Positions 15,674 to 36,303 of a DNA stretch of 64,000 nucleotides are shown piece after piece. The translations under genes were made by a program, and so were the position numbers. Positions within the stretch are counted from its first letter, which is position 1. Each line of letters starts with the position of its first letter. Under the pieces are notes generated by a model, which had not been told where the DNA came from, ran no database searches, and saw nothing but the letters and a program-made list of their open reading frames with translations. Origin of the DNA: Minisyncoccota bacterium (GTDB lineage Bacteria; Patescibacteriota; Minisyncoccia; Minisyncoccales; JAQTVQ01); the NCBI GenBank assembly GCA_041657385.1, contig JBBABZ010000001.1, forward strand, positions 29,821 through 93,820. Direction: 5' to 3'.

Positions 15674-15755
15674 CGTCCGGTCTTGACCGGACGCCCGGTC
15701 GGATGACCGGGCGGATACTGTTGCCGGCTATTAATTTTTAGGTAGCAACCAAACA

Positions 15756-16163
15756 ATGGTCTTGACTAAAAACAAAAAAAATTTCATTATCTTAGCGGGA
15801 GCCCTGTCTCTGTTTTTGTTTTCCGGAGGTGAAGCCTTAGCCGCTGGGATTGTTCCTTGCGGAGGAACGGATTGCACTCTTTGCGATCTCTTTAAAATGG
15901 TTGAGAACATCGTGAACCAGATATTTTATTATCTGGTTCCATCAATCGCCGTTTTGCTTGTTGTTTATGGCGGATTTTTATTAATTACAGCCAGGGGAGA
16001 TGGCAACTCTGAAAATGTGAAAAAAGCTAAAGCCGCTTTAACCGCTGTTGCCGTAGGGTTGCTTATAATTTACGGTTCATATATCGCTGTAAATGAAATA
16101 CTAAGAGCCGTGGGCGTAAAAACAGTCTGGCAGCAAGGGTGGTACCAAATTGATTGCCAGTAA
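15756..16163 (+). CDS. VirB2/TrbC-like pilin-domain protein (signal peptide, PCGG-C-x2-C motif, two-TM hairpin)
   Basis: Cleavable signal ending LAAG, a cysteine cluster, then TM1 LVPSIAVLLVVYGGFLLI, a basic loop and TM2 ALTAVAVGLLIIYGSY. Same architecture as the C-termini of the ORFs at 25162 and 28156. Confidence 0.45.
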   Translation: MVLTKNKKNFIILAGALSLFLFSGGEALAAGIVPCGGTDCTLCDLFKMVENIVNQIFYYLVPSIAVLLVVYGGFLLITARGDGNSENVKKAKAALTAVAVGLLIIYGSYIAVNEILRAVGVKTVWQQGWYQIDCQ

Positions 16164-16241: not shown

Positions 16242-16451
16242 CAAATTAGGAATTAGCTTGTATAAAATTATTGAATATTTAATAAAGGTCGACAATTGAA
16301 AAGATTAACTGGGGCATACGATCTGAAACCTGAAATGTTTAGCGATTGCCGCGATCAATGGCTAAAGATCTCAAGTTACAGATTGCGAGTTCCAGAGACC
16401 AAACATTATAGAAAAAGAGAAGATAATAAGAATTAAACAAATACACACAAT

Positions 16452-23180: not shown

Positions 23181-24164
23181 TTATTTCTTAAAAGACAGGT
23201 TAGAGCCGTATTTATATTTGGCGATGGGATTGGCAGTGCCGCGGACATCGAAATGCAAATGGCAGCCGGTTACGCCGACAACCTGGCCGGTATTGCCTAT
23301 ATATCCGATCAATTGGCCCTGAGAAACATTTTCTCCTGCCAACACCAAAATTTTGGAAAGGTGGGCATAGATAGTGACAACGCTATTCGGATGGATGATA
23401 TTGACATAATTGCCGAACGGCCATTGGTTGGTGGCTATTTGGATTTTCCCGCCGGCGGCGGCAAAAACAGGGGTGCCGCATTGATTGGCAATATCAACAG
23501 CATTAAAGAAATGAAGCGTTTGCGTGATCTTTCCGGTTGTCGGGAGAATAAAGAATCCATCCGGTAAAACATTCCCAACGTTTCGGGCTAGAACCGGAGC
23601 GATGGCGGCCGTAGGAGCCGAGATCTTTCCCTCAGGGACAACTATGATGTCTCCTACCGTTAATGCGGAGTTGGCATTAAGCTGATTAAAAGCGATGATT
23701 TGATCTTGGTCTGCTTTATAGAGCTTGGCTATTTGGGAAATCGTTTCTTTGTCGTTGATAATGTGCATTACGCCCGAAGTCGGCAAAACGACCAACTTCT
23801 GTCCAGCCTTAACGGCCGATCCTTTTTTTAAGTCGTTAGCCCAAAGAATCGTCTCCAAGCTGATCTTAAACTTCTCGGCAAGGCTGGCTAGAGTGTCTCC
23901 TTCTTTTACGGTATACTGGATAATATCGCGCTCTCCTTGCTCTGCCTGGCTTATTTCTTCGCTCAAATCAGCCATGGTCGCCAATGTTTGAGGCTTTACA
24001 AAAATAGGAGAGGGCACGCTTTTTAAGCTGGTGCCCTCTAATATAACTAAATTTTGAGCTGAATCTACAGTGTTTTGAGCGCTCAAAAGCGCGCAAGTAA
24101 GGGATTTTCCAGTTGTTTTTTTAGGGTCAACGCAACTGCTGCCATCGTTAACGGTTTTTGCCAA
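23181..24164 (-). CDS. LysM-domain M23 family peptidoglycan metalloendopeptidase
   Basis: LysM (YTVKEGDTLASLAEKF) plus M23 HxH region (GNTGQVVGVTGCHLHFDV). A hydrophobic signal-anchor is encoded in frame just upstream of the listed start, so the true start is probably non-ATG and further 5'. Confidence 0.8.
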   Translation of the reverse strand: MAKTVNDGSSCVDPKKTTGKSLTCALLSAQNTVDSAQNLVILEGTSLKSVPSPIFVKPQTLATMADLSEEISQAEQGERDIIQYTVKEGDTLASLAEKFKISLETILWANDLKKGSAVKAGQKLVVLPTSGVMHIINDKETISQIAKLYKADQDQIIAFNQLNANSALTVGDIIVVPEGKISAPTAAIAPVLARNVGNVLPDGFFILPTTGKITQTLHFFNAVDIANQCGTPVFAAAGGKIQIATNQWPFGNYVNIIHPNSVVTIYAHLSKILVLAGENVSQGQLIGYIGNTGQVVGVTGCHLHFDVRGTANPIAKYKYGSNLSFKK

Positions 24165-25161: not shown

Positions 25162-27462
25162 ATGACCCGCCGTTCTATTTATTTCGCCGCGATAATAATC
25201 CTCTTTTTTTCTTTGGCCGGGCCATGCCTGGCTGCTTGCGGCAGCTCTTGGTACGGATGCGTAGGAGGCCACAGCAATTCCTGCTCGGACGATCTTTGGT
25301 TTTATACACAATCCTGCGGCGGATATAACGACAAAGGGCAGTGCTTGAGCTGCCTTACCAATCAAGTTTTATCACAGGACTGTTTTGAATGGGAACAATG
25401 CAGCAGCGGCGCGGCTAAATGCCAATGCTGCGGCGATTGCTTCGGCACTCCAAAAAATCCAAGATACTACGACAACCCCACTTATTCCGACCAGCCGGAC
25501 AAAAGCCAAAATTCTCAAAGCATCGATCTTCCCTTAAAGCTGGACTGGGATGACGTCCTCGGCTGGAAAGACGGCTGGACGCAAAACGGAAACAAACAAT
25601 CCTGCTCCAGAAACTGCGCGAATTCTTACCGTTTGACTATCTACGACACAAAGGCAAAAAAAGAAGTCATTAATAAAGTCTTAACAAAGTCAGAATACAA
25701 TATCCGCGAAGACAAAGGGCCCTGTTTTTTAGAATCCAGCCGCACTTATGAATGGCACGTCCAAGCCTGCTGCGATTCTAATGGAACCACTTGCGGCCCG
25801 GCCAGCAATTGGAGTTTTACCACTAGCCTAGCACCGGAATTGGATTCTCCTTACGATCCAGATTGGGCCGGCCCGGAAAAAATAGAGAATGTCGATCTTC
25901 CGGTTTCTTTGAAATGGTGCAAGATCAACGAAACCAATTCCCACGACATAAGATTCTTTCTTGTAAAAAACGGGGTGGAACAATGTCATCCAAGCCTTTT
26001 GAACGGAACCGAATGCACCACTTATCCTTTCAACTTAAAAACTCAAACCAATTCCGAAATAACGGTTTTCCAAGACACTGACCTGAATTTCTTTACTAAA
26101 AGCAGCGAATACCGCTGGGAAATTTCTTCCTGTAAAGGCTATGTAAATTCCGAATGCGAGCTTTTCGGCCAGAAATGGTCTTTTTCCACCAAGGACACCA
26201 ATTTGATTGCCGCTTCGGGCTATCTCCCTTCAAACGATCCGACAGGAGCAACCCCCATCGGCCTTCCGGTAGATTTCAGCTGGGTCAAAACACCCGGAGC
26301 CAACTCTTATATTTTTGAACTGAACCCCGTGAACATTAAAAAGACTCTCAACTCAACTGGCCTGCAAATCGACTCTCCTTCTTTACAGTTGACGTCCTCC
26401 TATAATTGGAGAGTAAAACCTTGCTGGGATTTTGAAGGAAAAGACTGCGAAGATTTCAGCCAAACTTATTATTTCACAACCACCGGCCTGCCGCCGGTTA
26501 ATATCAATGTCGACGCCGTATCGTTTCCGGTTGAGATCGATTGGGGTAATGTCAGCGGAGCGTCTTCTTACTATTATCAGCTAGCTTCGGATGCCGGCTT
26601 TCAAAATATCATTGAAGGAAAGGATGCCAGCCAAAACAAAATAAGTTTTGATTATACTAAGATCAAACAGGAAACCGATTATTGGTTCCGCTTAAAAACC
26701 TGCGCCCATCAAAACGGAGAGCTCTGCGGCGATTGGAGCCAGACAAAAAACTTTAAAACGATCAAACTGGCATCCCCCGCAAACATTAAACCTCAAAATG
26801 GCTCCGTTCTTTCGACGAGCCAAGCGCAAACCTTTTCCTGGAACCCGGTTCCGGCCGCGAAGTATTATAAATATTCTTTAAAATACGCCGAGATGGCTGC
26901 CGAAGAAACCAATGAAAAATGCCCAGCCCTGCTTAACCAACTCCAAGAAAAAATTACAGCCAACACAAATGCCATAGAGATCATGGACTGCAAAGGAAAA
27001 TACCAGCTTCAAGCTCAAGCCTGTATGGAAGCAGATTGCAAGGCCGAGACATCGGGCAGCTGGTCTGCGGTGCAAGAGTTTAGTATAAAATCAGGAGTCG
27101 CTTCAAAAGACCTCCAAGGCAAGGGATTCATCCCTTGCGGCTTGTCAGCCGATGATCCAACAACCCCTTGGGACGAAAGCCAAAGATGCGAGATAAAACA
27201 CTTGTTCATTCTATTGAATATGATCATAAATTTCTTGATGTGGACGCTCGTGCCGATCGTCCTTCTCTTCTTGATGCTGGCTTCCGGAGCGATCTTTTAT
27301 TTCTCGATGGGCAGGGAAGACCCCTTGCCGCGGATCAAGTCTTTATGGAAAGCCGCCGGCATCGGCCTTGGCATTATTTTCTTATCTTGGTTCATTATCA
27401 ATATCAGCTTGTCATTGGTCGGATTTAAATTCGGCGCCTTTGGCAAATGGTGGAATTTTTAA
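25162..27462 (+). CDS. Secreted cysteine-rich protein with about 5 Fn3-like repeats fused to a C-terminal VirB2/TrbC-like two-TM pilin hairpin
   Basis: Signal peptide ending CLAAC and many paired cysteines. Repeated modules each end in W-x-F-(S/T)-T (NWSFTT, KWSFST, TYYFTT, KNFKT, QEFSI). C-terminus IPCG...C then two TM helices, homologous to the ORF at 15756. Confidence 0.5.
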   Translation: MTRRSIYFAAIIILFFSLAGPCLAACGSSWYGCVGGHSNSCSDDLWFYTQSCGGYNDKGQCLSCLTNQVLSQDCFEWEQCSSGAAKCQCCGDCFGTPKNPRYYDNPTYSDQPDKSQNSQSIDLPLKLDWDDVLGWKDGWTQNGNKQSCSRNCANSYRLTIYDTKAKKEVINKVLTKSEYNIREDKGPCFLESSRTYEWHVQACCDSNGTTCGPASNWSFTTSLAPELDSPYDPDWAGPEKIENVDLPVSLKWCKINETNSHDIRFFLVKNGVEQCHPSLLNGTECTTYPFNLKTQTNSEITVFQDTDLNFFTKSSEYRWEISSCKGYVNSECELFGQKWSFSTKDTNLIAASGYLPSNDPTGATPIGLPVDFSWVKTPGANSYIFELNPVNIKKTLNSTGLQIDSPSLQLTSSYNWRVKPCWDFEGKDCEDFSQTYYFTTTGLPPVNINVDAVSFPVEIDWGNVSGASSYYYQLASDAGFQNIIEGKDASQNKISFDYTKIKQETDYWFRLKTCAHQNGELCGDWSQTKNFKTIKLASPANIKPQNGSVLSTSQAQTFSWNPVPAAKYYKYSLKYAEMAAEETNEKCPALLNQLQEKITANTNAIEIMDCKGKYQLQAQACMEADCKAETSGSWSAVQEFSIKSGVASKDLQGKGFIPCGLSADDPTTPWDESQRCEIKHLFILLNMIINFLMWTLVPIVLLFLMLASGAIFYFSMGREDPLPRIKSLWKAAGIGLGIIFLSWFIINISLSLVGFKFGAFGKWWNF

Positions 27463-27466
27463 AATT

Positions 27467-28135
27467 ATGCCTAAACTTAAAATAACATTTCTAATTTTTA
27501 TAGGCCTTATGGCTGTTCTTTTGGTTTCCAATTGGGCGTCAACGAGCTATCTGAAAAATCAAATAAAAAAAATCCAGCCGCAAAACGGCGAGGATCAAAC
27601 TTCTTCCGCAAGCAGCACGCCTCTTTCGATCGAAGAGATTATCAAAGAGAGCAGCTATAAAACCCTTAAAACAGCTGACCAAAAATTATCGATCAAGTGC
27701 CCGATCGATTGGGTTGAAATAGGGGAAGAAAAAATATTAAAATATTTCGACGCTGAAACGGTCAGCCGATATCAGATAAAAATTCCTTTGGCCGCTGTAA
27801 AAAAAGACGGGGCCCAGCTGATGGTCACGGAAATTTTTATGGACTCGACCAGCACTCTCAAAGACGCTCTGTCTGCAAACGAAGAAATATACAAAAAAAC
27901 AGGGCAAGATGTTAATATTTTGTTGCAAAGCGAAAAAGAAAAAGAGCTGTATTTTGAAGCCGAATATACCCAAAAAGAGGAAAAAATGACCAGCCAGGAA
28001 AAAATATTGGAAACTGCGGACGATCAAGAAAAAAAACATTTTTACATTGTTTCGGTTGTCGTTCCAAGCGATCTGTCAAAAAATTATCAAGAAACAGGAA
28101 GCGAGATGCTAAGCTCTATTCAAATTAATAATTAA
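27467..28135 (+). CDS. Membrane-anchored hypothetical protein (size and topology compatible with a VirB8-like T4SS component)
   Basis: Single N-terminal TM (ITFLIFIGLMAVLLV) followed by a soluble domain of about 190 aa. Start taken at the ATG at 27467, after the upstream gene's stop. Confidence 0.4.
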   Translation: MPKLKITFLIFIGLMAVLLVSNWASTSYLKNQIKKIQPQNGEDQTSSASSTPLSIEEIIKESSYKTLKTADQKLSIKCPIDWVEIGEEKILKYFDAETVSRYQIKIPLAAVKKDGAQLMVTEIFMDSTSTLKDALSANEEIYKKTGQDVNILLQSEKEKELYFEAEYTQKEEKMTSQEKILETADDQEKKHFYIVSVVVPSDLSKNYQETGSEMLSSIQINN

Positions 28136-28155
28136 TTTGTGGTATAATATCGGCA

Positions 28156-29142
28156 ATGAAAATAGCAAAAAAAATTATTTTTTCTTTAATGGTTTTGGGC
28201 CTACTGGCCCCTTTAAAAATTTTTGCGCTGGAAATAGATTGGCCGGCTTCTCCGGCTGGCACAAATCTGTCAGATCAAAGCACTCTCACAGAGCTGACCA
28301 AATACTCTTACGAATGGGCGATAACACTGGGCATCTTGGCTTTTTTTGTTTCAATAGTTATTAACGGAGTTAAGTATATGACCTCAACCGGTGATCCCGG
28401 CAAAACTGCGAATGTGCGCAAAAGAATACAATCCTCGGCCGCGGGACTGGGCTTACTTCTTGGCTCTTGGATCCTTTTAAACTTCTTGAACCCAAGATTA
28501 ACCACTCTTTTTATTCCTGATCCAAACCAAGATTTAGCCACGCAAATGATTGAATATGAAGACTTCAGCAAACTTAAAGAAAACTCCTGCGATCTTATAA
28601 TTATTTATCCTAAAAAAAATTACGAAGAAGATAGTAACTTTGATCCACCAAAAGAAGTTCTTTATAACAGCGCAAAATCTCCCATAGATTTCAAAGTAAG
28701 TTTTTTTCCTCATTCTTTAAAAGTGTTGAAACAAATTAAAGGAGACGAACAATTAGTCTTAATGGACCAAGCAAACAGGCTGATCAGGGAAGAAAATGAA
28801 AAAATCAGAAAAGCAAATGAAGAAATGGTAAGATCGGGAGTTCAGGGGCCACCACAAGTGGAAAAACCGGAAAAAACTTTAAACGAGGCCATAAAAGAAA
28901 AATACGGTTCTGACCCTTTTCCTTATAGTGGGGGGCTTTTTGTTGATGCCCCTCCTGGCTGTGTTGCATACTTCTACAGAAAAGACCCTAAATATTTGTC
29001 GACGAGCATCTTTGGAACAGAGGATGTTCTAGCTTTTCAAATGTATGGCAGTAATCCTGATTTTAATACTCTTTATTCTGAAAACGAACTGAATCAGATT
29101 AAAAAATTCAGAGTGGTTATCCCTGGTACTGTGAGTGAGTAA
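28156..29142 (+). CDS. VirB2/TrbC-like pilin-domain protein with a C-terminal extension of about 200 aa
   Basis: Signal peptide, then YEWAITLGILAFFVSIVINGV - basic loop - AAGLGLLLGSWILLNF two-TM hairpin. Paralog of the 15756 ORF and of the 25162 C-terminus. Confidence 0.45.
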   Translation: MKIAKKIIFSLMVLGLLAPLKIFALEIDWPASPAGTNLSDQSTLTELTKYSYEWAITLGILAFFVSIVINGVKYMTSTGDPGKTANVRKRIQSSAAGLGLLLGSWILLNFLNPRLTTLFIPDPNQDLATQMIEYEDFSKLKENSCDLIIIYPKKNYEEDSNFDPPKEVLYNSAKSPIDFKVSFFPHSLKVLKQIKGDEQLVLMDQANRLIREENEKIRKANEEMVRSGVQGPPQVEKPEKTLNEAIKEKYGSDPFPYSGGLFVDAPPGCVAYFYRKDPKYLSTSIFGTEDVLAFQMYGSNPDFNTLYSENELNQIKKFRVVIPGTVSE

Positions 29143-29186
29143 TTAATTAACTTCTTGCTTCTATTTTTTTTAGGACTAAAAATAAC

Positions 29187-31409
29187 ATGATCCCAAAAAA
29201 ATATTATTATTTTCTCGCAATTTTCATCGCTTTTTTTGGCTTGTTTTTTGTTGTAAAAACAGCTTCCGCCGGCGGGATACCTTTTATTTCAGAGCTTCCC
29301 TCCAGTGAAGGATTTTTAAGCTCAATCGAAGAAATAGCCGGCCCCATCCTGCAAGAAGCAATAGGTCTTTTTACTGCGATCATCAAAGCCTTTGTAATGG
29401 TTTTTGTATCCGCCCATCTCTTGGATTGGGCGATGACCCAGCCCATAGGCCTTGATGATAAACTCGTGACAACAGGCTGGGCCTTTACTTTAGCTCTGAC
29501 AAATTTGATCTTTATTTTTATCATCCTTTATATCGCCATAAAGCAGATCGTCAGCGACGAAGGAGATATGAACTCTATTAAAAAATACCTTCCCAGATTA
29601 ATAACCACTATTCTACTGGTAAATTTTGGCGTGGTTTTTATAAAAATGGCGATCGATATCGCCTTTATTTTGCAAAGGAGCATGGTTCCCTCTGATTCAA
29701 GCCTGGCTTTTAACAGCCTATCCGGATTGGAACAACAGATTAGCGGGATTTTAATAAGTTATGGACTCTACTTTGGCGCAGGGATTCTTGCTTCTTTCCT
29801 GCCGTCAGCCGCAGCTGTCTGGCAAGGATTAGCCTGGCCGACATATATTTTAATGGCGCCGGCAAGGATCAGCGCCGAGATCCAAATTTATGTTTGCAAC
29901 ACTTTGGCAGGCATTTATTTTCTTTATGCCTTATATTTTATAATAAGGATCTATGTAATTAAAATTTTAACCATAATTTTCCCTTTAGCTTTTGCCTGTT
30001 ACGCCATCCCAAGCGAAGGCGCCCAAAAATTATGGAAACAATGGTCTAACTTTTTTATCACTTGGGTCTTTTTCCCTATACCCTTGCTCTTTTTCCTGGT
30101 CCTCGGGCTTAAATTGCTTCAAGACATAATGCCGGCTGGAATGGCTGCAATGGCAACCCCCCTTGCTTTCTGGCAAATAGCTACAAATGGAAATTTGCTC
30201 AGCCCAGCTGTAAACTACTATATCGCCCTTATCGCTTACCTTGCCACTTTAGCTTATCTGAAAGTTAAATTTTCGCCAAGCCTCGATATTGGAGGAATAA
30301 AGGGAGGGGCACTGATAGACAAGGGGAAAAACTTTGTTCTTAACAGGGCTAAACAATCCTTCGCCGGGGCCGCTGTCAACCAGCGGGCAAGAGAAAAAAC
30401 CGTACAGGCAGAAGAAGCAAGCGGCAAAAAATCAGGATGGATGAAAAGAACGGGGATGATGGCCGGCTCTCTTGCTGCGGGAGTGGTAGAAAATGAATTT
30501 AGAAGCTCCGGAACTACTTCCAACATAGAGCTTGCCAAGGCTATTAAAGAAAAAAAAGAAGAATACAAAAAACAATTCGGAGAAGATATGGAAAGCGCCT
30601 CAAAATTTTTCAACGACCCTTCGTCAGCTCCGAAGACAGATCTCGAAAAAAGAGCTTTTTCTTCATACCTTGTTGATAATGCCAAAAGCGGCGAAGACTT
30701 AAAAAAGGCTTTGGACGGCGGCGGATTTTTAAAGAGATCTTTTAAGATAGAAAATCTCAAAGAAAGAAAAGCCAGAGTAACGATGAAAGTGGAGGACCTG
30801 CTCAAGGCCTCGGACGAAAAAACCGCAGATGCCTTAAAAAGGAGTATGATCGGCGAAACAGTTGTTGAATCAAAATTGTGGAATTTGACCGGCGGCAGCA
30901 AAGATATCAAGTCAAAATTCACACTCGCTGAAGAAGAGGTTAAAAAGGTCGTTGGAGGAGCCAAAAGCGAGGAAGACATGAAGCAGTTTATCCCAGGCTT
31001 TGAAAAAGACCCAGCCGCTCTTGAAAAAATAATGGAATTTGACGTTGAACAGCTTACGGCGCTAGCGAAAACCCATCGCTCCGCGCTTAAAGAATATGTC
31101 AAAAAGGTCAATGAAAAAGGCGTTGAAGATTTTGCAAAAGACCACGCCAGCCAGATGATGTTTATAGTTGGAACCGCCGGCCAAGCCGTCTTGCGGGATA
31201 AAGACAACAATGTCCTTGATAAAAAAGCGATTCAAGAAATGATAAGCGGAGTTAAAAAACACCAAGAGGACCCACCTATAGCTGGGTTTGCGCCAGAGAA
31301 AAAAGAGGCCTCGCCCGAACCTCCCAAAACGACAGAAGAAAAGGTAGAAGGGACGGGGGGCAGAAAATCTACAGCCGAAAGGATAAACGAAAAAAGAAAT
31401 AAGGGATAA
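29187..31409 (+). CDS. VirB6/TrbL-like polytopic membrane protein with a long K/E-rich C-terminal domain
   Basis: Signal peptide, 7 or more predicted TM helices over the first 360 aa or so, then a hydrophilic tail of about 380 aa. Confidence 0.5.
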   Translation: MIPKKYYYFLAIFIAFFGLFFVVKTASAGGIPFISELPSSEGFLSSIEEIAGPILQEAIGLFTAIIKAFVMVFVSAHLLDWAMTQPIGLDDKLVTTGWAFTLALTNLIFIFIILYIAIKQIVSDEGDMNSIKKYLPRLITTILLVNFGVVFIKMAIDIAFILQRSMVPSDSSLAFNSLSGLEQQISGILISYGLYFGAGILASFLPSAAAVWQGLAWPTYILMAPARISAEIQIYVCNTLAGIYFLYALYFIIRIYVIKILTIIFPLAFACYAIPSEGAQKLWKQWSNFFITWVFFPIPLLFFLVLGLKLLQDIMPAGMAAMATPLAFWQIATNGNLLSPAVNYYIALIAYLATLAYLKVKFSPSLDIGGIKGGALIDKGKNFVLNRAKQSFAGAAVNQRAREKTVQAEEASGKKSGWMKRTGMMAGSLAAGVVENEFRSSGTTSNIELAKAIKEKKEEYKKQFGEDMESASKFFNDPSSAPKTDLEKRAFSSYLVDNAKSGEDLKKALDGGGFLKRSFKIENLKERKARVTMKVEDLLKASDEKTADALKRSMIGETVVESKLWNLTGGSKDIKSKFTLAEEEVKKVVGGAKSEEDMKQFIPGFEKDPAALEKIMEFDVEQLTALAKTHRSALKEYVKKVNEKGVEDFAKDHASQMMFIVGTAGQAVLRDKDNNVLDKKAIQEMISGVKKHQEDPPIAGFAPEKKEASPEPPKTTEEKVEGTGGRKSTAERINEKRNKG

Positions 31410-31421
31410 AAACGTCAAAAC

Positions 31422-31452
31422 AAAAGAGGCCGATTAAATTGGCCTCTTTTTT
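31422..31452. terminator. Bidirectional intrinsic terminator hairpin
   Basis: aaaagaggccgattaaattggcctctttttt lies between convergent genes. Confidence 0.6.
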
Positions 31453-31460
31453 GTTGTTCT

Positions 31461-32540
31461 TTAACCCTTTCTTTTGTCTGGCTTTTTCGTCAAGCTCTTA
31501 GCAATTTCGGGGAAATTAGATCCTATCCCGCGTATATGCTCGCTCTTCAAATCCACCACTAAAGATGAGACTGTAAGCAACGCCGTCTGATAAATAGCCG
31601 CTCCTTCTTCCTTCCCAAACCTTTCTATCAACATCTTGATCATCGCCTCTTCTCCATCTTTATAGAGAAACGCTGCCGCCTTACTTCCCTCCGCTTTCAA
31701 GATAGCGGCTTTTTTTTCTCCTTCAGCCTTTTCGATTGCTGCCTCCTTTTCTTTGGTCGCGATATATTTCGCGGCAATGATCTTCTCCCAATCTGGCGGA
31801 GGCATGATATTCTGCACTTGAATATCGGAAAGTTCTATTCCATAATCAATCAACAATTCCTCAATAATGGACCTTTCGTTGGAATATCCGGCTCCTTTTT
31901 TCTTTTCTTCACTGTTGCCTTTAGAATCTTCGGGCAGTCTTTTTTCTCTTAACATCTTCATAAAAGTAGCACCCAAATCTCCCTTTTCTTTGACCATTGA
32001 TTCTAGCGTCTTCTCTCCGATAACGTCTCGGATAACCGGTCCGGTTTTGTTAACCAACATTTCCATCCAATTTTCACAGTCGAAAAGCGCTTTCTTGGGG
32101 TTAACCACTTTGGCCGTATAAATTATCCCCACTGAAGCTAGCCTGACCTGGTTAGAATCTAATGGCGCAAGAATATCCGCATAATACAAGTCACTTTTGA
32201 GGAAGACATAATCTATTATTCTCAAGTCATGGTGATCTTTTTCTCCTCTCTGATTGACCGACGTCCATTCCCAAGGATATTCATAAATATAATCCAGCGG
32301 ATTAATGCTGAAAAATCTTATTCCTCCTAAAAAATGGCCATGACTTTTCTCTCCAGGGGAGAGGGGAACTATATTCCATTCACGATCAAACTTATACCCG
32401 TCATAATTCAAAAGCCCTCCTCTGAATTCTCCATATCTTACAATAATTTTGCAATAACCATTCTCGATTTGCGTATAGAATCTCCGCTTTTTATAATCAG
32501 CTATTTTTTCCTTTGACTTTAGTGTTGCTTCTCCTTCCAT
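31461..32540 (-). CDS. SPFH/band-7 (stomatin/prohibitin-like) domain protein
   Basis: IDYGIELSDIQVQNIMPP and a downstream A/E/K-rich coiled coil are characteristic of the SPFH C-terminal region. Confidence 0.6.
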   Translation of the reverse strand: MEGEATLKSKEKIADYKKRRFYTQIENGYCKIIVRYGEFRGGLLNYDGYKFDREWNIVPLSPGEKSHGHFLGGIRFFSINPLDYIYEYPWEWTSVNQRGEKDHHDLRIIDYVFLKSDLYYADILAPLDSNQVRLASVGIIYTAKVVNPKKALFDCENWMEMLVNKTGPVIRDVIGEKTLESMVKEKGDLGATFMKMLREKRLPEDSKGNSEEKKKGAGYSNERSIIEELLIDYGIELSDIQVQNIMPPPDWEKIIAAKYIATKEKEAAIEKAEGEKKAAILKAEGSKAAAFLYKDGEEAMIKMLIERFGKEEGAAIYQTALLTVSSLVVDLKSEHIRGIGSNFPEIAKSLTKKPDKRKG

Positions 32541-32775
32541 ATTTCTTTCTTTAAAAGATCTTCTTCAGCCTTGGCGTTACCCTTGGCTGAAAAGATAACC
32601 CTTTAAAGGTTACGTTTATTATTTCAGCCTTGGTTTAAGCCAAGTTTAGATGATTATTTTATACAATATTTTAGTTATTCTGTCAAATATTTTTATAAAC
32701 TAAAAACCCTCCAAAAAACACGCTCAACTCTGCGAGTAAGTTGAAATTTTTACAGGATAGGGGAAAAATCTGCTT

Positions 32776-32805
32776 TTGACAAAAGCGGATTTATGTTAAA
32801 ATATT
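32776..32805 (+). promoter_or_regulatory. Sigma70-like promoter candidate (TTGACA, about 15 nt, TGtTAAAAT)
   Basis: ttgacaaaagcggatttatgttaaaat lies 8 bp upstream of the ATG at 32813. Confidence 0.4.
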
Positions 32806-32812
32806 TTTAAGC

Positions 32813-33313
32813 ATGCAAAAAGAAATTTCAGAACAACAATTTTGGGAGGCATACGATGCTATCCCCGCTGAATTGCAGGATGCGATTTTTTCCGAAAAAA
32901 CGGCAAAAGCCATTTTCAATGCTTGTGTCGAAAATGGCATAGAAGATGAAAGAATATCTAAGGTCGCTAAAAACGTCGGAGATGTCCTTTTGGGCCTTCT
33001 TTCTCCTGAACAATTACAGCCAACGCTGGAACTTGATCTAAATTTAGAGTCGCAAGCATCGGAAAATATCTGCCAAGCGATATATAATACTATCTTTGAA
33101 CCAGTCCGCTCGCAGCTCGCAGAGCTTTATCTCCATAATAATGAAGAGAGAAAAGAAACAAAAATAAAAATAGAGGTCGAACCAAAAATAGAGAAACCTT
33201 CATCTGAAGATGTACTAGGTAACAATCCTAAAAAAGAAGACAAAAAACCTATCCCTGCCAAATCGGCGACAGAAAAGTCTTCTTCTGTTTCCTACCGCGA
33301 GCCAATCGGCTAA
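32813..33313 (+). CDS. Hypothetical acidic protein
   Basis: ORF with good coding periodicity and no recognisable motifs. Lies in the T4SS-like cluster. Confidence 0.4.
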   Translation: MQKEISEQQFWEAYDAIPAELQDAIFSEKTAKAIFNACVENGIEDERISKVAKNVGDVLLGLLSPEQLQPTLELDLNLESQASENICQAIYNTIFEPVRSQLAELYLHNNEERKETKIKIEVEPKIEKPSSEDVLGNNPKKEDKKPIPAKSATEKSSSVSYREPIG

Positions 33314-33327
33314 CCTCAAATCAAACT

Positions 33328-33744
33328 ATGCAATTCCAAGTTCCTCAATTCATAGAACACGAAGCAAAAATTTTAGGACCCCTGACTTTCAGGCAGACTA
33401 TTTTTATGGGCATTGCCGCCATGGTCTGCTTTATGCTTTATTTTGCTTTTGGCAAAACTAATTTCTTTTTATTCATCTTGTCATCTATCTTGATCGTAGG
33501 AGGAACGGCAGCTCTGGCTTTTGTCAAAATTAGCGGGCAGACCTTATCTTTGATCGTAAAAAATTTTTTCATTTTCAGCCTAGCCCCGAAACTCTATCTT
33601 TGGAAAAGGAAGGAGACTGCGGTATATTTTGAAAAATCTCCAATTAAGCCCGTTGGAAAAGAAGAGCCGAAAAACTCTCCGCTTAAAATAGTGAAAGGCA
33701 GCAATATAAAAGATTTAAGTAAAAAATTGGATTTCGGCGGATAA
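33328..33744 (+). CDS. PrgI/VirB3-like small two-TM membrane protein
   Basis: 138 aa with two adjacent TM helices (FMGIAAMVCFMLYFAF, FFLFILSSILIVGGTAALAF). Lies immediately upstream of the VirB4-like gene, as in Gram-positive T4SS. Confidence 0.45.
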   Translation: MQFQVPQFIEHEAKILGPLTFRQTIFMGIAAMVCFMLYFAFGKTNFFLFILSSILIVGGTAALAFVKISGQTLSLIVKNFFIFSLAPKLYLWKRKETAVYFEKSPIKPVGKEEPKNSPLKIVKGSNIKDLSKKLDFGG

Positions 33745-33751
33745 ATTTATT

Positions 33752-34393
33752 ATGGCAAAGATCGCAACCCAACAATTTCTTCCCATCGACCAAATCAGAG
33801 AAGGAGTACTGCTCTTAAAAGACAGATCTATGAGGGGGGTCATTATGATCTCTTCTTTGAATTTCGCCTTGAAATCGGAAGATGAACAAACGGCCATCAT
33901 CTACCAATTCCAAAATTTCCTAAATTCTCTGGATTTTTCCTGCCAAATAATCGCTCAATCTCGAAAATTAAACATAACCGGATACCTCGAAAAGCTCAAA
34001 GAGATAGAAAAGGCCCAGCAAAACGAACTTCTCAAAACGCAGACGGCTGAATATCGCAAATTCATTGAACAAATAATAAGCGGGGGATCGATCATGTCAA
34101 AAAGTTTTTATACCGTTGTCCCTTATTATCCTTTAATAGATATTCCTGGAGCTCCTGGAGCAAAACAAAAAAAAGATGCCAGCAGGGCTAGTTTGACCGA
34201 AGAAAAATTCCAGCGCGGAAAATATCAGTTATGGCAAAGGATGGAATATGTTGTTTTGGGGTTAAGGCGCTGCGGCTTAAGAGGAAGCCCTCTCAACACC
34301 CCTGAACTGATCGAATTGCTTTGGGCCCATCATCATCCAAAAGAAGCAGAATCCGGATATTATCCTGAATTGCCCCCGGAAATGTTAATTTAA
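33752..34393 (+). CDS. VirB4/TrbE-like protein, N-terminal fragment (split gene or frameshift)
   Basis: Resembles the CagE/TrbE/VirB N-terminal domain (LPIDQIREGVLLLKDRSMRGVIMISS...). Ends 24 bp before the ATPase ORF, which is in a different frame. Confidence 0.45.
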   Translation: MAKIATQQFLPIDQIREGVLLLKDRSMRGVIMISSLNFALKSEDEQTAIIYQFQNFLNSLDFSCQIIAQSRKLNITGYLEKLKEIEKAQQNELLKTQTAEYRKFIEQIISGGSIMSKSFYTVVPYYPLIDIPGAPGAKQKKDASRASLTEEKFQRGKYQLWQRMEYVVLGLRRCGLRGSPLNTPELIELLWAHHHPKEAESGYYPELPPEMLI

Positions 34394-34416
34394 TATATTA
34401 AAAAGCCTTAATCTCA

Positions 34417-36186
34417 ATGAATTTTCTTAAAAAAGGTGAACGGGAGAAATTTTTTGAAGCGGAAAAGATGGACGCAAAAGACATCATCGCCCCCGCCTCG
34501 ATCGAGATCAAACAAAGCAATATAAAGTTAGGCGAAAAATTAGCTAAAACCTACTTTGTTTTTTCCTATCCAAGATACCTTACTACCGGCTGGCTTTCCC
34601 CGATCATTAATTTAGATATTCCCCTGGATATCTCTTTCTTTTTTCATCCAGTGGAAACCGGCGATGTCTTAAAAAAAATGCGTCGCAAAGTTACCGAAAT
34701 ACAGGCCGAACTTTTAGAGAGGGAAGAAAAAGGGTTGGTTCGCGATCCTTCGCTCGAAACCGCTTACAATGACTTGGAGAACCTGCGCGACAGCCTCCAA
34801 ACCGCGCAAGAAAAAATGTTTAAATTTGGATTATATATTACCGTCTACGCCGACACCGAAGCCCAGCTCACAGATGTTGAGACGACCCTAAGATCAGTGC
34901 TTGAATCGCGTTTGATCTATCTAAAGCCGGCTCTCTGCCAGCAAAAAGAAGGATTTATCTCTGTCTCGCCATACGCTATAGACCAATTGCAAGTCCACAC
35001 CAGCATCAATACCGGCCCATTGTCTTCTGTTTTTCCTTTTGTTTCTTTTGACCTTAGCTCTAATGAAGGAATTTTGTACGGCATGAATAAGCATAATAAT
35101 TCCCTGGTTCTGTTCGACCGCTTTACCCTGGAAAACGCCAATATGGTCATTTTCGCCAAATCCGGATCAGGAAAATCTTACGCGGTCAAACTAGAGGTAT
35201 TGCGATCTTTAATGATGGGAGTGGAAGGGATTATCGTTGACCCGGAAAACGAATATGAAATGCTTTCCGATTCGGTTGGAGGCTCCTTTTTTAAAATCTC
35301 TTTAAGCTCGGATGATCATATCAATCCTTTTGATCTGCCGATCCCCCGCGAAGATGAAAAAGCGGAAGATGTTTTAAGGTCAAACATCATCAACCTTGTT
35401 GGGCTTATCAGGATCATGCTTGGAGGGCTGAACCCGGAGGAGGATGCGATCATCGACCGCGCGCTGGCTGAAACTTATGCCGCCAAAGATATCACGCCGG
35501 ATTCCGACCAATCAAAATGGAAAGAGAATACCCCGATCTTATCGGATTTGGAATCAGTTTTGGAAACAATGCAAGGAGCGGAATCACTGGTCCAAAGAAT
35601 AAGAAAATTCACTCGCGGAACATTTTCTTCTTTCTTTAATCAGCAATCCAATATTTCTATGGATAAACAGTTGGTTGTTTTCGGGATCAGAGATATGGAA
35701 GACGAGTTAAGGCCGATGGCAATGTTTATTATTATGCGCTATATTTGGAACGAGATCCGATCCGAATTGAAAAAAAGGATATTAGTGATCGATGAGGCTT
35801 GGTGGCTGATGCAGTCCGAAGACGGAGCCTCTTTCTTATATGGCATGGCCAAGCGCGCCCGCAAATATTGGCTGGGAGTAACCACTATCACTCAAGATGT
35901 TTCCGATTTTATGAAATCTTCCTATGGCAAACCGATCATCACTAATTCCTCTCTCCAGCTTCTTCTCAAACAGAGCCCAGCTACTGTTGATATTCTTCAG
36001 CAAACTTTTAACCTGACCGACCAAGAAAAATTTTTACTGCTTGAAACGCCGATAGGAGAGGGAATTTTTTTCGCCGGACAAAAACATGTATCTATTAAAA
36101 TAGTCGCTTCTTATACAGAGGACCAGATTATAACCTCCAGTCCAGAGCAAATCTTAAAGATCAAAGAAGCTAAAAAAAATATCTGA
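34417..36186 (+). CDS. VirB4/TrbE-like T4SS ATPase (central and C-terminal part)
   Basis: Walker A in MVIFAKSGSGKSY and the RKYW...TQDVSDF C-terminal blocks typical of VirB4-family ATPases. Confidence 0.75.
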   Translation: MNFLKKGEREKFFEAEKMDAKDIIAPASIEIKQSNIKLGEKLAKTYFVFSYPRYLTTGWLSPIINLDIPLDISFFFHPVETGDVLKKMRRKVTEIQAELLEREEKGLVRDPSLETAYNDLENLRDSLQTAQEKMFKFGLYITVYADTEAQLTDVETTLRSVLESRLIYLKPALCQQKEGFISVSPYAIDQLQVHTSINTGPLSSVFPFVSFDLSSNEGILYGMNKHNNSLVLFDRFTLENANMVIFAKSGSGKSYAVKLEVLRSLMMGVEGIIVDPENEYEMLSDSVGGSFFKISLSSDDHINPFDLPIPREDEKAEDVLRSNIINLVGLIRIMLGGLNPEEDAIIDRALAETYAAKDITPDSDQSKWKENTPILSDLESVLETMQGAESLVQRIRKFTRGTFSSFFNQQSNISMDKQLVVFGIRDMEDELRPMAMFIIMRYIWNEIRSELKKRILVIDEAWWLMQSEDGASFLYGMAKRARKYWLGVTTITQDVSDFMKSSYGKPIITNSSLQLLLKQSPATVDILQQTFNLTDQEKFLLLETPIGEGIFFAGQKHVSIKIVASYTEDQIITSSPEQILKIKEAKKNI

Positions 36187-36189
36187 AAA

Positions 36190-36213
36190 CAAAAAAGCCC
36201 TTAAGGGCTTTTT
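36190..36213. terminator. Bidirectional intrinsic terminator hairpin
   Basis: aaaaaagcccttaagggctttttt lies between convergent genes. Confidence 0.65.
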
Positions 36214-36303
36214 TGTTTTCAGAATAAATTTTATAATTTCCATTTGGCTCTGCTGTCGGGAGGGGCAACTCGCTCCCCGAGGCGGAAGCCCGCCCCGATA
36301 AAA

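Follow-up and report, generated by a model that had tools for sequence, protein, structure and literature searches.

A chromosomal type IV secretion gene cluster of the Patescibacteria clade beside dnaA in a Paceibacteria genome

Genes of the cluster

The window, a 64-kb stretch of a Paceibacterota chromosome analysed here at its full length, carries a genuine type IV secretion system (T4SS) gene cluster at positions 25162-36186, between rsmA and jag-yidC-rnpA-dnaA-dnaN (Table 1). The first-pass annotation had described a T4SS-like membrane apparatus encoded by co-oriented genes with one opposing SPFH gene, and this was borne out: VirB2-like, PrgI/VirB3, VirB6-like and VirB4 parts are present, and all listed ORFs of the cluster are intact at their coordinates and lie on the + strand, the SPFH gene excepted. 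There are two transcription units, rsmA-766-222-328-740 and 166-PrgI-TrsD-VirB4 (numbers are protein lengths in residues), each ended by a strong hairpin and separated from one another by the SPFH gene.

Table 1. Coordinates of the cluster genes, nearby genes and terminator-like hairpins in the window
Feature	Position	Strand	Basis
VirB2-like pilin, 135 aa, outside the 25162-36186 interval	15756..16163	+	T4SS_pilin, TrbC/VirB2
LysM + M23 peptidoglycan endopeptidase, upstream of rsmA	23181..24164	-	Peptidase_M23, LysM
Secreted protein, 766 aa, C-terminal VirB2-like hairpin	25162..27462	+	Pfam, phmmer, motifs, TM
Membrane-anchored PsbP/Mog1-fold protein, 222 aa	27467..28135	+	AF2, Foldseek, Pfam of family
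VirB2-like T4SS pilin-domain protein, 328 aa	28156..29142	+	PF18895
Polytopic TrbL/VirB6-family protein, 740 aa	29187..31409	+	Family-level evidence
Intrinsic-terminator-like hairpin, 13-bp stem, closing the rsmA-to-VirB6-like unit	31422..31450	+	
SPFH/Band 7 protein, 359 aa	31461..32540	-	Band_7 E = 2.5e-14
Soluble protein, 166 aa, first gene of the PrgI-TrsD-VirB4 unit	32813..33313	+	Synteny, conserved tail
PrgI/VirB3-like protein, 138 aa, two TM helices	33328..33744	+	PF12666
TrsD-like protein, 213 aa, VirB4 N-terminal domain as separate ORF	33752..34393	+	NCBIfam, PF26593
VirB4-type ATPase, 589 aa, MPF_FATA / CD1110 family	34417..36186	+	NCBIfam, Pfam, motifs
Bidirectional terminator-like hairpin, 19-bp stem, between convergent VirB4 and jag	36182..36223	.	

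The 589-aa ATPase scored above the cut-off of the NCBIfam model conju_CD1110 (E = 1.2e-110; 370.9 bits against 325), matched P-loop_TraG (1.6e-24) and AAA_10 in Pfam, and aligned with residues 222-772 of pCF10 PrgJ at 24% identity (E = 7e-41). Its Walker A (AKSGSGKS) and Walker B (LVIDEAW) motifs, read from the translation, are intact. The first-pass annotation had correctly called this protein VirB4 but had missed that the motor is made of two polypeptides, the ATPase and a TrsD-like N-domain protein. In VirB4 models the latter aligns with the N-terminal region alone (VirB4_plasma, 1.6e-10, profile positions 104-215; CD1110, 2.8e-5, profile positions 2-107; TrsD, 0.0037; all NCBIfam); it has a precomputed PF26593 TraC-like assignment and is encoded in a different frame from the ATPase across a 23-nt spacer. 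Among 80 related loci described below, the TrsD-like protein is a separate ORF in 78, and PrgI lies directly upstream of it in 73. The PrgI/VirB3-like call for the 138-aa protein was likewise upheld (PF12666, E = 1.4e-9; 38.8 bits, cut-off 27).

Two VirB2-like pilins had been proposed, and both assignments stood. In the 328-aa protein a signal peptide is followed by a pilin domain (residues 41-111) and a hydrophilic C-terminal stretch of ~210 residues. Its matches are T4SS_pilin PF18895 (E = 4e-9; 36.9 bits, cut-off 26.6) and the NCBIfam family Mbov_0395 pilin-like conjugal transfer protein (3.3e-6). Of the 80 related loci, 48 encode a homologue, 290-1516 aa in length. The 766-aa protein begins with a signal or TM segment (residues 8-26) and a Cys-rich head with 13 Cys in residues 22-93, followed by about five Ig/FN3-like modules, each closing with C-x7-C...W/Y-x-F-x-T (Ig_Rha78A_N, E = 4.9e-6, residues 468-534), and ends in a two-helix pilin hairpin (TM 688-706 and 734-752). 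The hairpin gave a T4SS_pilin match of E = 0.083 over residues 684-747, and phmmer matched this C-terminus to the 135-aa pilin at 2e-5 to 1e-7. Homologues occupy the equivalent position in related loci L035, L045 and L083-L087. From these sequence features we read the 766-aa protein as a pilin-adhesin fusion; with extensions of 200-650 residues, such pilin-domain proteins could also be plain membrane-anchored surface proteins instead of pilus subunits. The third pilin of the window, the 135-aa protein (T4SS_pilin, 6.3e-6; TrbC/VirB2, 1.4e-4), is encoded between tRNA-Arg and tRNA-Lys genes (15600-15674 and 16169-16242).

The gene between the two pilin-domain genes starts best at the ATG at 27467, 4 nt past the upstream stop. 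Its 222-aa product had been described as an anchored protein of VirB8 size; the anchor was confirmed as a single TM (residues 6-24), with the folded domain extracytoplasmic, whereas the likeness to VirB8 was not. The AF2 model (pLDDT 90.9) has a PsbP/Mog1 fold, with PsbP (7.5e-7), Mog1, MTC28, LpqN and DcrB as top Foldseek matches, and Pfam PsbP and PsbP_2 were matched in 11 and 8 of 53 representative homologues, respectively. No VirB8 or NTF2 structure occurred in the Foldseek top 50, the VirB8/NTF2 assignment was rejected, and neither Pfam analysis of this family nor that top 50 yielded a VirB8-like scaffold. Wherever flanking DNA is available, homologues of the 222-aa protein lie between genes like those for the 766-aa and 328-aa proteins. 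Annotation of the ORFs supports relations to VirB2, VirB3, VirB4 and, at family level, VirB6, but not to VirB8.

Assignment of the 740-aa protein to the TrbL/VirB6 family, also proposed earlier, rests on family-level evidence and is made at that level only. By itself the protein has no Pfam match, and its AF2 model was poor (pLDDT 53.5), a fold search of it giving no informative match. Residues 9-310 contain about 7-8 hydrophobic segments, and the C-terminal half of ~380 residues is hydrophilic and Lys/Glu-rich. TrbL was matched by 5 of 45 syntenic homologues (best 6e-6) and TrbL_4 by 3, and the positional homologue in L087 matches PF04610 TrbL weakly. Searched against the PDB, the family profile gave one match below E = 1, to TrwI, the VirB6 of R388 (7o3v_F, E = 0.018), in an alignment spanning the conserved motif R..LSPLAF..P...W; against pCF10 PrgH it gave a non-significant hhalign probability of 2.8%.

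No TM is predicted in the SPFH protein; 22-35 of the related loci have an SPFH homologue at the equivalent site, facing the same way. The 166-aa protein has no Pfam, PDB or PrgF match; its homologues (clusters g166 and c16), found between the VirB6-like gene and PrgI in ~56 of the 80 loci, share a C-terminal tail, D-x-Y-[RK]-E-P-[IL]-E (the YREP tail), with Y161 and E163 invariant. Outside the cluster, the LysM-M23 protein (Peptidase_M23, 8.5e-26; LysM, 7e-21) has DipM, ActS and MepM as its best NCBIfam matches, all far below their cut-offs. Its gene is present in 30 loci that also have rsmA, and L087 has a LysM+CHAP enzyme in its place. The enzyme is a candidate for a VirB1-type wall-opening function but could equally well be a cell-division hydrolase.

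Conservation of the locus in Paceibacteria

Across the 80 retrieved GTDB Paceibacteria species, the order M23(-)-rsmA-...-VirB6-like-(SPFH-)-166-PrgI-TrsD-VirB4-...-jag-yidC-rnpA-dnaA-dnaN is found again, VirB4 identities being 66-88%. rsmA is present in 33 of the 80 loci and dnaA in 54, these being the loci whose sequence reaches dnaA, as many contigs end before it; in all 54 the T4SS locus adjoins dnaA. Conserved neighbours further upstream are pnp, a gene for a dksA/traR zinc-finger protein, and comM/yifB. Among thousands of scored VirB4 homologues, the best 120 are 572-595 aa long and 77-100% identical, and those with a named source all come from Patescibacteria-type metagenome bins.

The conserved gene order and VirB4 identity point to a vertically inherited core system rather than a mobile element. 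Base composition runs across the window without a break, and neither an integrase nor a repeat-bounded island was found in it. Vertical descent is also indicated by a published tree in which, for 99.3% of VirB4 proteins, the closest homologue belongs to their own class.

Proposed role and direction of transport

No ORF in the 64-kb window resembles VirD4/TcpA or another coupling protein (T4CP), a relaxase or VirB11, as the first-pass annotation had held; the sole T2SSE-family ATPase of the window is GspE/PilB-like. Most Patescibacteria genomes encode T4CP homologues (in 2,918 genomes, 5,713 were counted, just 148 of them near virB4), and relaxases are rare (109 in 103 of 3,035 genomes; PMC12102498). 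A T4CP or relaxase may lie farther away in the present genome. Most likely, the T4SS works without a coupling protein. In Saccharibacteria the T4SS is needed for epibiotic growth (Wang et al., 2023); in Ca. Southlakia epibionticum, such growth strictly requires the T4SS genes, among them those for TrsD, PrgI, VirB6 and the pilin array, whereas the T4CP homologue is dispensable. We consider, with a probability of about 0.8, that the cluster is a chromosomal, vertically inherited Patescibacteria-clade T4SS of class Paceibacteria with a non-conjugative, host-interaction role, a figure that does not extend to the direction of transport. The likely role is that of a host-contact pilus and translocon; the non-conjugative function suggested earlier for this DNA agrees with the literature (PMC12102498; PMC12857230).

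In the mechanism we propose, VirB4/TrsD would dock via PrgI onto the VirB6-like channel in a single membrane, and pilin hairpins would be extracted from that membrane in an ATP-driven manner and polymerised to give a tube or fibre outside the cell. There the fused Ig-like domains would be exposed and bind the host cell, and the neighbouring LysM-M23 hydrolase may open the wall. Such a machine would serve an epibiotic lifestyle by contact-dependent trafficking with the host cell, not conjugation.

As to direction, uptake of host material (nucleic acids) falls somewhat short of an even bet. It is possible, and held tentatively, that the machine is a dedicated importer like H. pylori ComB or Sulfolobales Ced, bringing host RNA or DNA into the parasite and feeding the syntenic PNPase and recombination or competence genes. 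T4CP, relaxase and VirB11 are all missing from the window, a situation resembling that of ComB and Ced, which have no T4CP, and the window VirB4 has a weak similarity to CedB (53 bits); this score is, however, set against a cut-off of 700 and is far weaker than the conjugative CD1110 match. The conserved pnp, dksA/traR and comM/yifB genes fit an importer but may merely mirror conserved origin-proximal gene order, and the cluster has no ComEC/ComEA-type partner. The literature proposes nucleotide acquisition via the T4SS, and, for one cultivated representative of the phylum, a 2026 preprint describes uptake of host RNA together with tube-like structures 'that may be T4SS pili'; direct evidence of import through any Patescibacteria T4SS was not found in the literature examined.

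Export of effectors, in which injected proteins would make the host cell release nutrients, is rather doubtful. A role in delivering effectors into the host has been put forward for the Saccharibacteria T4SS, a protein-exporting Gram-positive T4SS is described (FEMS review), and pilin arrays and adhesin-like fusions suit host targeting. Protein exporters normally need a T4CP for substrate recruitment, however, and none is encoded in the window; the dispensable T4CP homologue of S. epibionticum also argues against this reading, and no candidate effector/immunity pairs were seen in the cluster.

An unlikely alternative is a device for adhesion or pilus display only, in which VirB4, VirB3 and VirB6 would build a pilin-adhesin fibre tethering the cell to its host without substrate transfer. 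Consistent with this, two of the three pilin-domain genes in the window encode large extracytoplasmic domains (five Ig-like modules; a ~210-aa C-terminal domain), pilin-domain proteins in related loci reach 1,516 aa, and no substrate-recruiting ATPase is present. Patescibacteria, however, already attach by type IV pili, and the window encodes a PilB/GspE-like ATPase; that VirB4 is so highly conserved, and is essential elsewhere, suggests more than adhesion.

Conjugation, by an intact or decayed integrated element with relaxase and coupling protein outside the window, is very improbable: the conjugal-transfer CD1110 match, the VirB6-VirB3-VirB4 order collinear with pCF10 prgH-prgI-prgJ and the presence of relaxases in a minority of Patescibacteria would allow it, but the fixed site beside dnaA, the missing integrase, island boundaries and compositional break, the intact ORFs with their active-site motifs and the vertical descent of VirB4 all stand against it.

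Comparison with known systems

The diderm MPF_T systems (R388 Trw, Agrobacterium VirB) share the VirB2/TrbC-type pilin fold family and a TrbL/VirB6-type protein with the window, which in contrast has no VirB5, VirB7, VirB8, VirB9, VirB10, VirB11 or VirD4, VirB7/9/10 being the outer-membrane core; its VirB4 belongs to another clade (TIGR00929 VirB4_CagE, 126 bits; cut-off 643). ComB and Ced are T4SS-derived, work without relaxase or coupling protein and offer a possible precedent for import; the similarity to CedB is remote, and ComB-type VirB7-10 components are absent from the window.

The pCF10 Prg/Pcf system of Enterococcus faecalis, the MPF_FATA prototype, has collinear prgH (VirB6), prgI (VirB3) and prgJ (VirB4). 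Its PrgJ is a one-piece protein of 796 aa, whereas the window VirB4 is split in two ORFs. pCF10 has the PrgK hydrolase, VirB8-like PrgL, the T4CP PcfC, the relaxase PcfG and LPXTG adhesins but no VirB2 pilins; the window has pilins and no PrgL-, PcfC- or PcfG-like genes. The pGO1/pSK41-type Trs systems (TrsC-TrsD-TrsE) of staphylococcal plasmids form an MPF_FATA subclass in which TrsD adjoins the VirB4-type ATPase. Unlike the window cluster, pGO1 is a conjugative plasmid, and it has a relaxase and a T4CP. The separate TrsD of these systems is related to the VirB4 N-terminus, the window ORF matching TrsD weakly, and pGO1 is without the VirB2-like pilins and VirB6 homologue that the window has (PMC12102498).

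From the Patescibacteria-clade T4SS, including those of Ca. Southlakia epibionticum ML1 and Nanosynbacter lyticus TM7x (Wang et al., 2023; PMC12102498), the window differs in nothing essential. Both have an MPF_FATA-type VirB4 with an adjacent TrsD-like ORF, PrgI/VirB3, VirB6 and VirB2-like pilins, no nearby relaxase or T4CP, and a site near dnaA, dnaN, rnpA and ksgA; the Saccharibacteria loci differ in their short-pilin arrays and downstream peptidase/lysozyme genes. The first-pass annotation had missed that this is a phylum-wide, relaxase-free chromosomal system, already published (2023-2025) and typical of ultrasmall Patescibacteria. Quinonero-Coronel et al. (2025; PMC12102498) describe the TrsD split, with TrsD as the commonest VirB4 partner, PrgI, VirB6 and VirB2-like pilin arrays, the absent relaxase and, for Paceibacteria, the location near dnaA, dnaN, rnpA and ksgA. 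The Patescibacteria VirB4 clade is nested in MPF_FATA in their work, and the system originates from monoderm MPF_FATA conjugation machinery. Adhesins such as PrgB were not detected in Patescibacteria T4SSs by these authors, whereas the window has Ig-repeat pilin fusions; their main text contains neither these fusions nor a PsbP-fold protein between pilin-domain genes, the YREP-tail protein or the SPFH gene. To the published system our analysis adds a conserved module in which an Ig-repeat pilin fusion, a PsbP-fold protein and an extended pilin occur together, as well as a conserved YREP-tail protein and an SPFH gene of conserved position; these are small additions.

Composition of the T4SS-like cluster

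Nine real ORFs were confirmed within 25162-36186, eight on the + strand and one on the - strand, and the T4SS-like identity proposed for this interval in the first-pass annotation proved right. For the 222-aa ORF we chose the ATG at 27467, 4 nt past the upstream stop, so that the N-terminal TM helix is retained; alternative starts are a TTG at 27368 (mechanical ORF) and position 27509 (public gene call). Because intergenic gaps are short (3-44 nt) within two blocks of genes, the layout suggests two transcription units. The first would run from rsmA (ksgA), which ends 3 nt upstream of the 766-aa gene, through the 766-, 222-, 328- and 740-aa genes to a hairpin with a 13-bp stem, and the second would comprise the 166-aa, PrgI, 213-aa and 589-aa genes and end at a 19-bp bidirectional hairpin. 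The SPFH gene, transcribed in the opposite direction, separates both units. Rfam and tRNA scans returned nothing within the cluster.

Features of the T4SS-like cluster and of its surroundings in the window
Feature	Coordinates	Strand	Description
Four-helix-bundle gene	10686-11075		'23S rRNA intervening sequence' type
tRNA-Arg(tcg)	15600-15674		
135-aa protein	15756-16163		Free-standing pilin
tRNA-Lys(ctt)	16169-16242		
PNPase	17229-19337		
DksA/TraR-type protein	21208-21567		Zinc finger
ComM/YifB	21641-23176		
LysM-M23 endopeptidase	23181-24164	-	
766-aa protein	25162-27462	+	Ig-repeat protein ending in pilin hairpin
222-aa protein	27467-28135	+	Membrane-anchored, PsbP/Mog1 fold
328-aa protein	28156-29142	+	Signal peptide, T4SS_pilin, C-terminal extension
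740-aa protein	29187-31409	+	VirB6-like
Hairpin, 13-bp stem	31422-31450		Suggested end of first unit
359-aa protein	31461-32540	-	SPFH, Band_7 E=2.5e-14, no TM segment
166-aa protein	32813-33313	+	Soluble, YREP tail
138-aa protein	33328-33744	+	PrgI/VirB3
213-aa protein	33752-34393	+	TrsD-like
589-aa protein	34417-36186	+	VirB4 ATPase
Hairpin, 19 bp, bidirectional	36182-36223		Suggested end of second unit
Lamin-tail-domain protein	45954-46709	-	C-terminal TM anchor
T2SSE-family ATPase, 431 aa	47863-49158	-	Type IV pilus/T2SS type by model scores

The 589-aa protein matched the NCBIfam model for the CD1110-family VirB4-like conjugal transfer ATPase with 370.9 bits (cut-off 325, E=1e-110), as well as Pfam P-loop_TraG and AAA_10, and aligned with residues 222-772 of pCF10 PrgJ (24% identity, E=7e-41). 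Its Walker A (AKSGSGKS) and Walker B (LVIDEAW) motifs, read in the translation, are intact. The best 120 database matches all scored at least 1048 bits, were 77-100% identical and had lengths of 572-595 aa; the source-named entries among them were all Patescibacteria-type metagenome bins, two of which the source labels Pacearchaeota. An identical VirB4 occurs in metagenome bins at NCBI and JGI that bear the name Candidatus Paceibacterota, and the best 80 of 590 tblastn-confirmed VirB4 stretches from GTDB genomes carry Patescibacteria-type or unclassified-MAG titles. Judged by these matches, the protein would be an MPF_FATA-lineage VirB4 closest to those of Patescibacteria.

The adjoining 213-aa ORF was called TrsD-like from profile matches: to VirB4_plasma over profile positions 104-215 only (E=1.6e-10), to positions 2-107 of the CD1110 model, to TrsD (E=0.0037) and to PF26593 TraC-like, its precomputed Pfam family. 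BLASTP gave no significant match between this ORF and the N-terminus of PrgJ. Because the ORF matches only the N-terminal part of the VirB4 model and occupies its own reading frame, different from that of the ATPase and set off by a 23-nt spacer, VirB4 is encoded in two pieces, with the TrsD-like ORF directly beside virB4. The first-pass annotation had recognized VirB4 but missed this split into a TrsD-like ORF and an ATPase ORF. A frameshift artefact was ruled out by the lengths of the ATPase homologues among the best 120 and by the presence of a separate TrsD-like ORF ahead of VirB4 in 78 of 80 related loci. The proposed PrgI/VirB3-like protein near virB4 also held: the 138-aa product, with two TM helices, scored 38.8 bits against PF12666 PrgI (cut-off 27).

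In the 740-aa protein, residues 1-310 contain ~7-8 hydrophobic segments and a Lys/Glu-rich tail follows; the protein alone gave no Pfam match. A word-indexed homologue search yielded no more than 3 proteins and, repeated, 4, a shortfall probably due to low-complexity words in the TM segments; ORFs from syntenic loci were used instead. Among these homologues, 5 of 45 matched TrbL/VirB6 (best 6e-6) and 3 of 45 TrbL_4; the positional homologue in a distant locus, L087, matched PF04610. When the family profile was compared with the PDB, the best and only match below E=1 was TrwI, the VirB6 of plasmid R388 (E=0.018), in an alignment that spans the most conserved family motif, R..L..LSPLAF....P......W. 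Structure prediction for the N-terminal 400 residues (AF2, 8-sequence alignment) reached a pLDDT of 53.5, and Foldseek against the PDB with this low-confidence model gave only uninformative helical matches (E >0.25). Comparison of the family with single-sequence pCF10 PrgH by hhalign gave a probability of 2.8%, over the R...PL(A/F) motif region alone, and was given no weight. We accept the 740-aa protein, described earlier as VirB6-like, as VirB6-family at family level. Its C-terminal half (residues ~360-740, ~380 aa) is hydrophilic, Lys/Glu/Ala-rich and poorly conserved, with homologues ranging from 236 to 1,236 aa, and recalls the 'extended VirB6' proteins of a 2025 FEMS review.

Pilins and accessory proteins

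Both VirB2-like pilins previously claimed for the cluster were borne out. The 328-aa protein carries a signal peptide, a T4SS_pilin domain (PF18895, E=4e-9) and a C-terminal extension of ~210 aa, and matched the NCBIfam Mbov_0395 pilin-like family at 3.3e-6. The C-terminal two-helix hairpin of the 766-aa protein matched T4SS_pilin weakly (E=0.083), and phmmer related it to a 135-aa pilin (1e-7 to 2e-5) that itself matches T4SS_pilin (6e-6) and TrbC/VirB2 (1.4e-4). Genes for predicted VirB2-like pilins thus lie near virB4. The 135-aa pilin is a third one, encoded outside the cluster interval, 9 kb upstream, exactly between tRNA-Arg(tcg) and tRNA-Lys(ctt). The region of the 766-aa protein that precedes the hairpin opens with a signal peptide and a Cys-rich head, followed by about five modules with a C-x7-C...W/Y-x-F-x-T signature. 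This modular reading is based on the recurring Cys/aromatic motifs and on one module that matches an Ig-like Pfam family (4.9e-6); BLAST self-comparison of the protein gave no significant internal repeats.

The 222-aa protein had been put forward as a VirB8-sized component, an assignment that was rejected. An exhaustive HMMER search collected 53 representative homologues of 195-265 aa, of which 11 matched Pfam PsbP and 8 PsbP_2, and an AF2 model from the 53-homologue alignment reached a pLDDT of 90.9. Foldseek searches of the PDB with this model returned PsbP/CyanoP (7.5e-7, target-normalised TM-score up to 0.70), Mog1, MTC28, LpqN and DcrB, with Eag/SciW T6SS chaperones lower down the list; VirB8, TraM, PrgL and TcpC were absent from the top 50 matches. 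An N-terminal TM helix is present, but the domain is a PsbP/Mog1-type sandwich and not NTF2-like. As this protein was the single candidate, no VirB8-like NTF2-fold scaffold of the PrgL/TraM type was found in the window.

A homologue of the 222-aa protein was detected in only one of the 80 related loci (L035, 1e-27). In the window, in L035 and in L083-L087, the loci for which flanking DNA was available, the gene always lies between the 766-aa and 328-aa homologues. Given this restricted occurrence and these constant neighbours, the 222-aa protein is not a general component of the system; it is part of a pilin module of three genes that is lineage-restricted. Across loci the PsbP-fold proteins share just 24-34% identity, but their neighbours are kept. 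Eag/SciW chaperones shield hydrophobic helices of T6SS effectors. Because the fold is common with these chaperones, the PsbP-fold protein could, by analogy, serve as an extracytoplasmic chaperone or assembly factor for the pilin-adhesin fusions, replacing the missing VirB8.

The 166-aa protein belongs to a family of soluble proteins of ~130-200 aa with an invariant C-terminal D-x-Y-[RK]-E-P-[IL]-E, which we term the YREP tail and which, by its sequence, looks like a docking peptide. A YREP-tail gene lies between the VirB6-like gene and PrgI in ~56 of 80 loci (35 with the 166-aa family, the others with a related cluster, c16). Searches of Pfam and the PDB gave no match to the protein, and a PrgF identity was ruled out (hhalign probability 0.08%). 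The opposing SPFH protein reported earlier was verified by its Band_7 match. This protein and the YREP-tail protein may be cytoplasmic or membrane-scaffold accessories of the VirB4/TrsD motor. Taken jointly, the reading that the three-gene module is an unrecognised T4SS sub-system and that the YREP-tail and SPFH proteins are new motor accessories seems to us quite unlikely.

A LysM-M23 endopeptidase gene lies two genes upstream of the cluster on the opposite strand, in a conserved position: LysM+M23 occurs upstream of rsmA in the window and in 30 related loci, while L087 has LysM+CHAP at the same site (1488-2513, - strand). The catalytic domain of this hydrolase appears, from the domain matches, to have been replaced at a conserved position (M23 versus CHAP). 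The best curated matches of the LysM-M23 enzyme were cell-division endopeptidases, all below cut-offs; a role as wall-opening partner of the T4SS is plausible, and it could equally be a division hydrolase.

Genomic setting and absent components

The window is a stretch of Paceibacterota (Patescibacteria/CPR) chromosome. The cluster lies at the replication origin, flanked by rsmA (ksgA) and jag-yidC-rnpA-dnaA-dnaN, which is the dnaA/dnaN/rnpA/ksgA neighbourhood typical of Paceibacteria. A scan of one genome per GTDB species found 590 relatives, and the best 80, retrieved from Paceibacteria species with VirB4 66-88% identical, were analysed. Their recurring gene order is comM, LysM/M23(-), rsmA, variable pilin-domain genes, VirB6-like, in some a small YREP-tail protein, SPFH(-), YREP-tail protein, PrgI, TrsD, VirB4, then a small TM protein with large pilin-domain proteins, and jag, yidC, rnpA, dnaA and dnaN. 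Counted by tblastn over the 80 loci, many of which end at contig ends, TrsD was found in 78, PrgI in 73, the VirB6-like protein in 51, the 166-aa family in 35, SPFH in 22 and the 766-aa protein in 2. Base composition showed no island-like break at the cluster. From this pattern the locus is a vertically inherited core that combines a conserved motor/channel part with a fast-evolving pilin/adhesin part. That the cluster is a mobile element was ruled out by synteny, by composition and by the lack of an integrase in the window.

In 45 of the 80 loci (among L003-L081), VirB4 is followed, before jag, by the gene for a small membrane protein of ~130 aa (cluster c8) and by one to four genes for large pilin-domain proteins of 300-1,516 aa. 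Only 117 nt, with no gene in them, separate VirB4 from jag in the window, where the pilin-domain genes are found ahead of the VirB6-like gene; the variable module has changed place. Small selfish-looking genes are repeatedly found between PrgI, TrsD and VirB4 in relatives (e.g. L024, L039, L051, L068, L087), encoding four-helix-bundle '23S rRNA intervening sequence' proteins, GxxExxY proteins and IS200-like transposases. None interrupts these genes in the window, which carries one '23S rRNA intervening sequence'-type gene elsewhere. The upstream neighbours include PNPase, a 563-aa coiled-coil protein, the DksA/TraR-type protein and ComM/YifB; in several of the related loci, too, pnp, dksA/traR and comM are found ahead of the T4SS genes.

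To survey absent components, all ORFs of 120 aa or more across the 64-kb window were inspected and doubtful ones were domain-scanned. Those outside the cluster were all housekeeping genes: fatty-acid and biotin enzymes, PNPase, ComM/YifB, RsmA, Jag, YidC, RnpA, DnaA, DnaN, PBP1A, TyrRS, RuvABC, YebC, two-component proteins, Fpg, HolA, a Mur ligase and others. No VirD4/TcpA-type coupling protein (T4CP), relaxase or integrase was present among the window ORFs, and the first-pass annotation was correct that VirD4, relaxase and VirB11 are missing there; within the window, no relaxase accompanies the cluster and no T4CP adjoins it. The sole T2SSE-family ATPase scored 441 bits with GspE, 430 with PilB and 54 with VirB11 (cut-off 250). 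A VirB11 identity was thereby ruled out, and the scores place this ATPase, by homology, with the type IV pilus/T2SS type. The lamin-tail-domain protein is encoded near it, and the two probably serve type IV pilus or competence functions apart from the T4SS.

Working model, direction of transport and comparison with known systems

In characterized systems, VirB4, VirB3 and VirB6 form an inner-membrane complex, and VirB4 extracts VirB2 pilin from the membrane (summarised in PMC12857230 and PMC12102498). Set against such established knowledge, the parts list, predicted topologies, operon layout and conservation pattern of the window lead us to infer a working model in which the TrsD/VirB4 ATPase would dock onto the VirB6-like channel via PrgI and polymerise the pilin hairpins into an extracellular tube or fibre. 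If both proteins adopt the usual VirB2 topology, the N-terminal Ig repeats of the 766-aa protein and the C-terminal extension of the 328-aa protein would be exposed on the outside of the cell, as possible host-binding modules along the fibre or at its tip, and the upstream LysM-M23 enzyme would be a plausible wall opener.

Cargo candidates under discussion for Patescibacteria T4SS are effectors, nucleic acids, or none. Tn-seq of the saccharibacterium Ca. Southlakia epibionticum is reported to show that its T4SS genes, among them TrsD, PrgI, VirB6 and the pilin array, are essential for epibiotic growth and that its T4CP homologue is dispensable (Wang et al. 2023). A June 2026 preprint describes RNA taken up from the host, and tubular structures 'that may be T4SS pili', in a cultivated representative of the phylum, reports monophyly of PNPase and VirB4 and ties both to host-RNA feeding. 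We place most weight on import through the T4SS, with a probability of roughly 0.4, because no T4CP lies nearby, that of S. epibionticum is dispensable, the phylum lacks nucleotide biosynthesis, and pnp and comM are conserved neighbours. Export of effectors is doubtful, and a purely adhesive apparatus is unlikely. Conjugation, at the bottom of the scale, is very improbable.

Conjugative MPF_FATA systems of the pCF10/pGO1 type differ from the window in having a relaxase and a VirD4/TcpA coupling protein, which link DNA processing to the channel and are missing from the 64 kb, and a VirB8-like scaffold. Their operons also carry a dedicated peptidoglycan hydrolase (PrgK/TrsG type), for which the opposite-strand LysM-M23 enzyme is at most a candidate counterpart. 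DNA-import systems of the Ced/ComB type are also distant: the cluster scored 53 bits for CedB (cut-off 700) and 23 bits for CedD, and Pfam/NCBIfam domain searches detected no CedA- or ComB-like partners in it. The closest counterpart is the T4SS of the Patescibacteria, a vast, mostly uncultivated radiation in which few other machines are known to be essential to epibiotic or parasitic life. VirB4 occurs in 2,417 of 3,035 Patescibacteria genomes, and nearly all of these proteins group in a single clade inside MPF_FATA (Quinonero-Coronel et al. 2025, PMC12102498). The same survey reports TrsD as the most abundant VirB4-associated component, PrgI/VirB3, VirB6 and VirB2-like pilin arrays near virB4, VirB8 homologues almost limited to class ABY1, relaxases in 103 genomes only, T4CP homologues that are common and rarely near virB4, and a position near dnaA, dnaN, rnpA and ksgA in Paceibacteria. 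Its authors concluded that the T4SS was co-opted for non-conjugation functions, and the 2025 FEMS review lists them as a new type of T4SS, one that may make pili of the conjugative type in a monoderm.

Four details outside the main text of PMC12102498 are leads to possible novelty: the three-gene module in which an anchored PsbP-fold protein stands between an Ig-repeat pilin fusion and an extended pilin (the survey detected no adhesins), the YREP-tail family, of no known domain, encoded before PrgI in the majority of loci, the SPFH gene with its conserved position and opposite orientation, and the free-standing pilin gene between two tRNA genes. The value of the window lies in a well-resolved reference locus and a shortlist of accessory genes (PsbP-fold, YREP-tail, SPFH and Ig-repeat pilin fusions) that are conserved, undiscussed in the published survey and testable in a cultivable relative. 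The cluster itself shows all seven of the Patescibacteria-clade features compared (PMC12102498); because that system has already been published, its recognition in the first-pass annotation was a correct rediscovery, and the locus stands as a clean Paceibacteria example that leaves the published picture unchanged.
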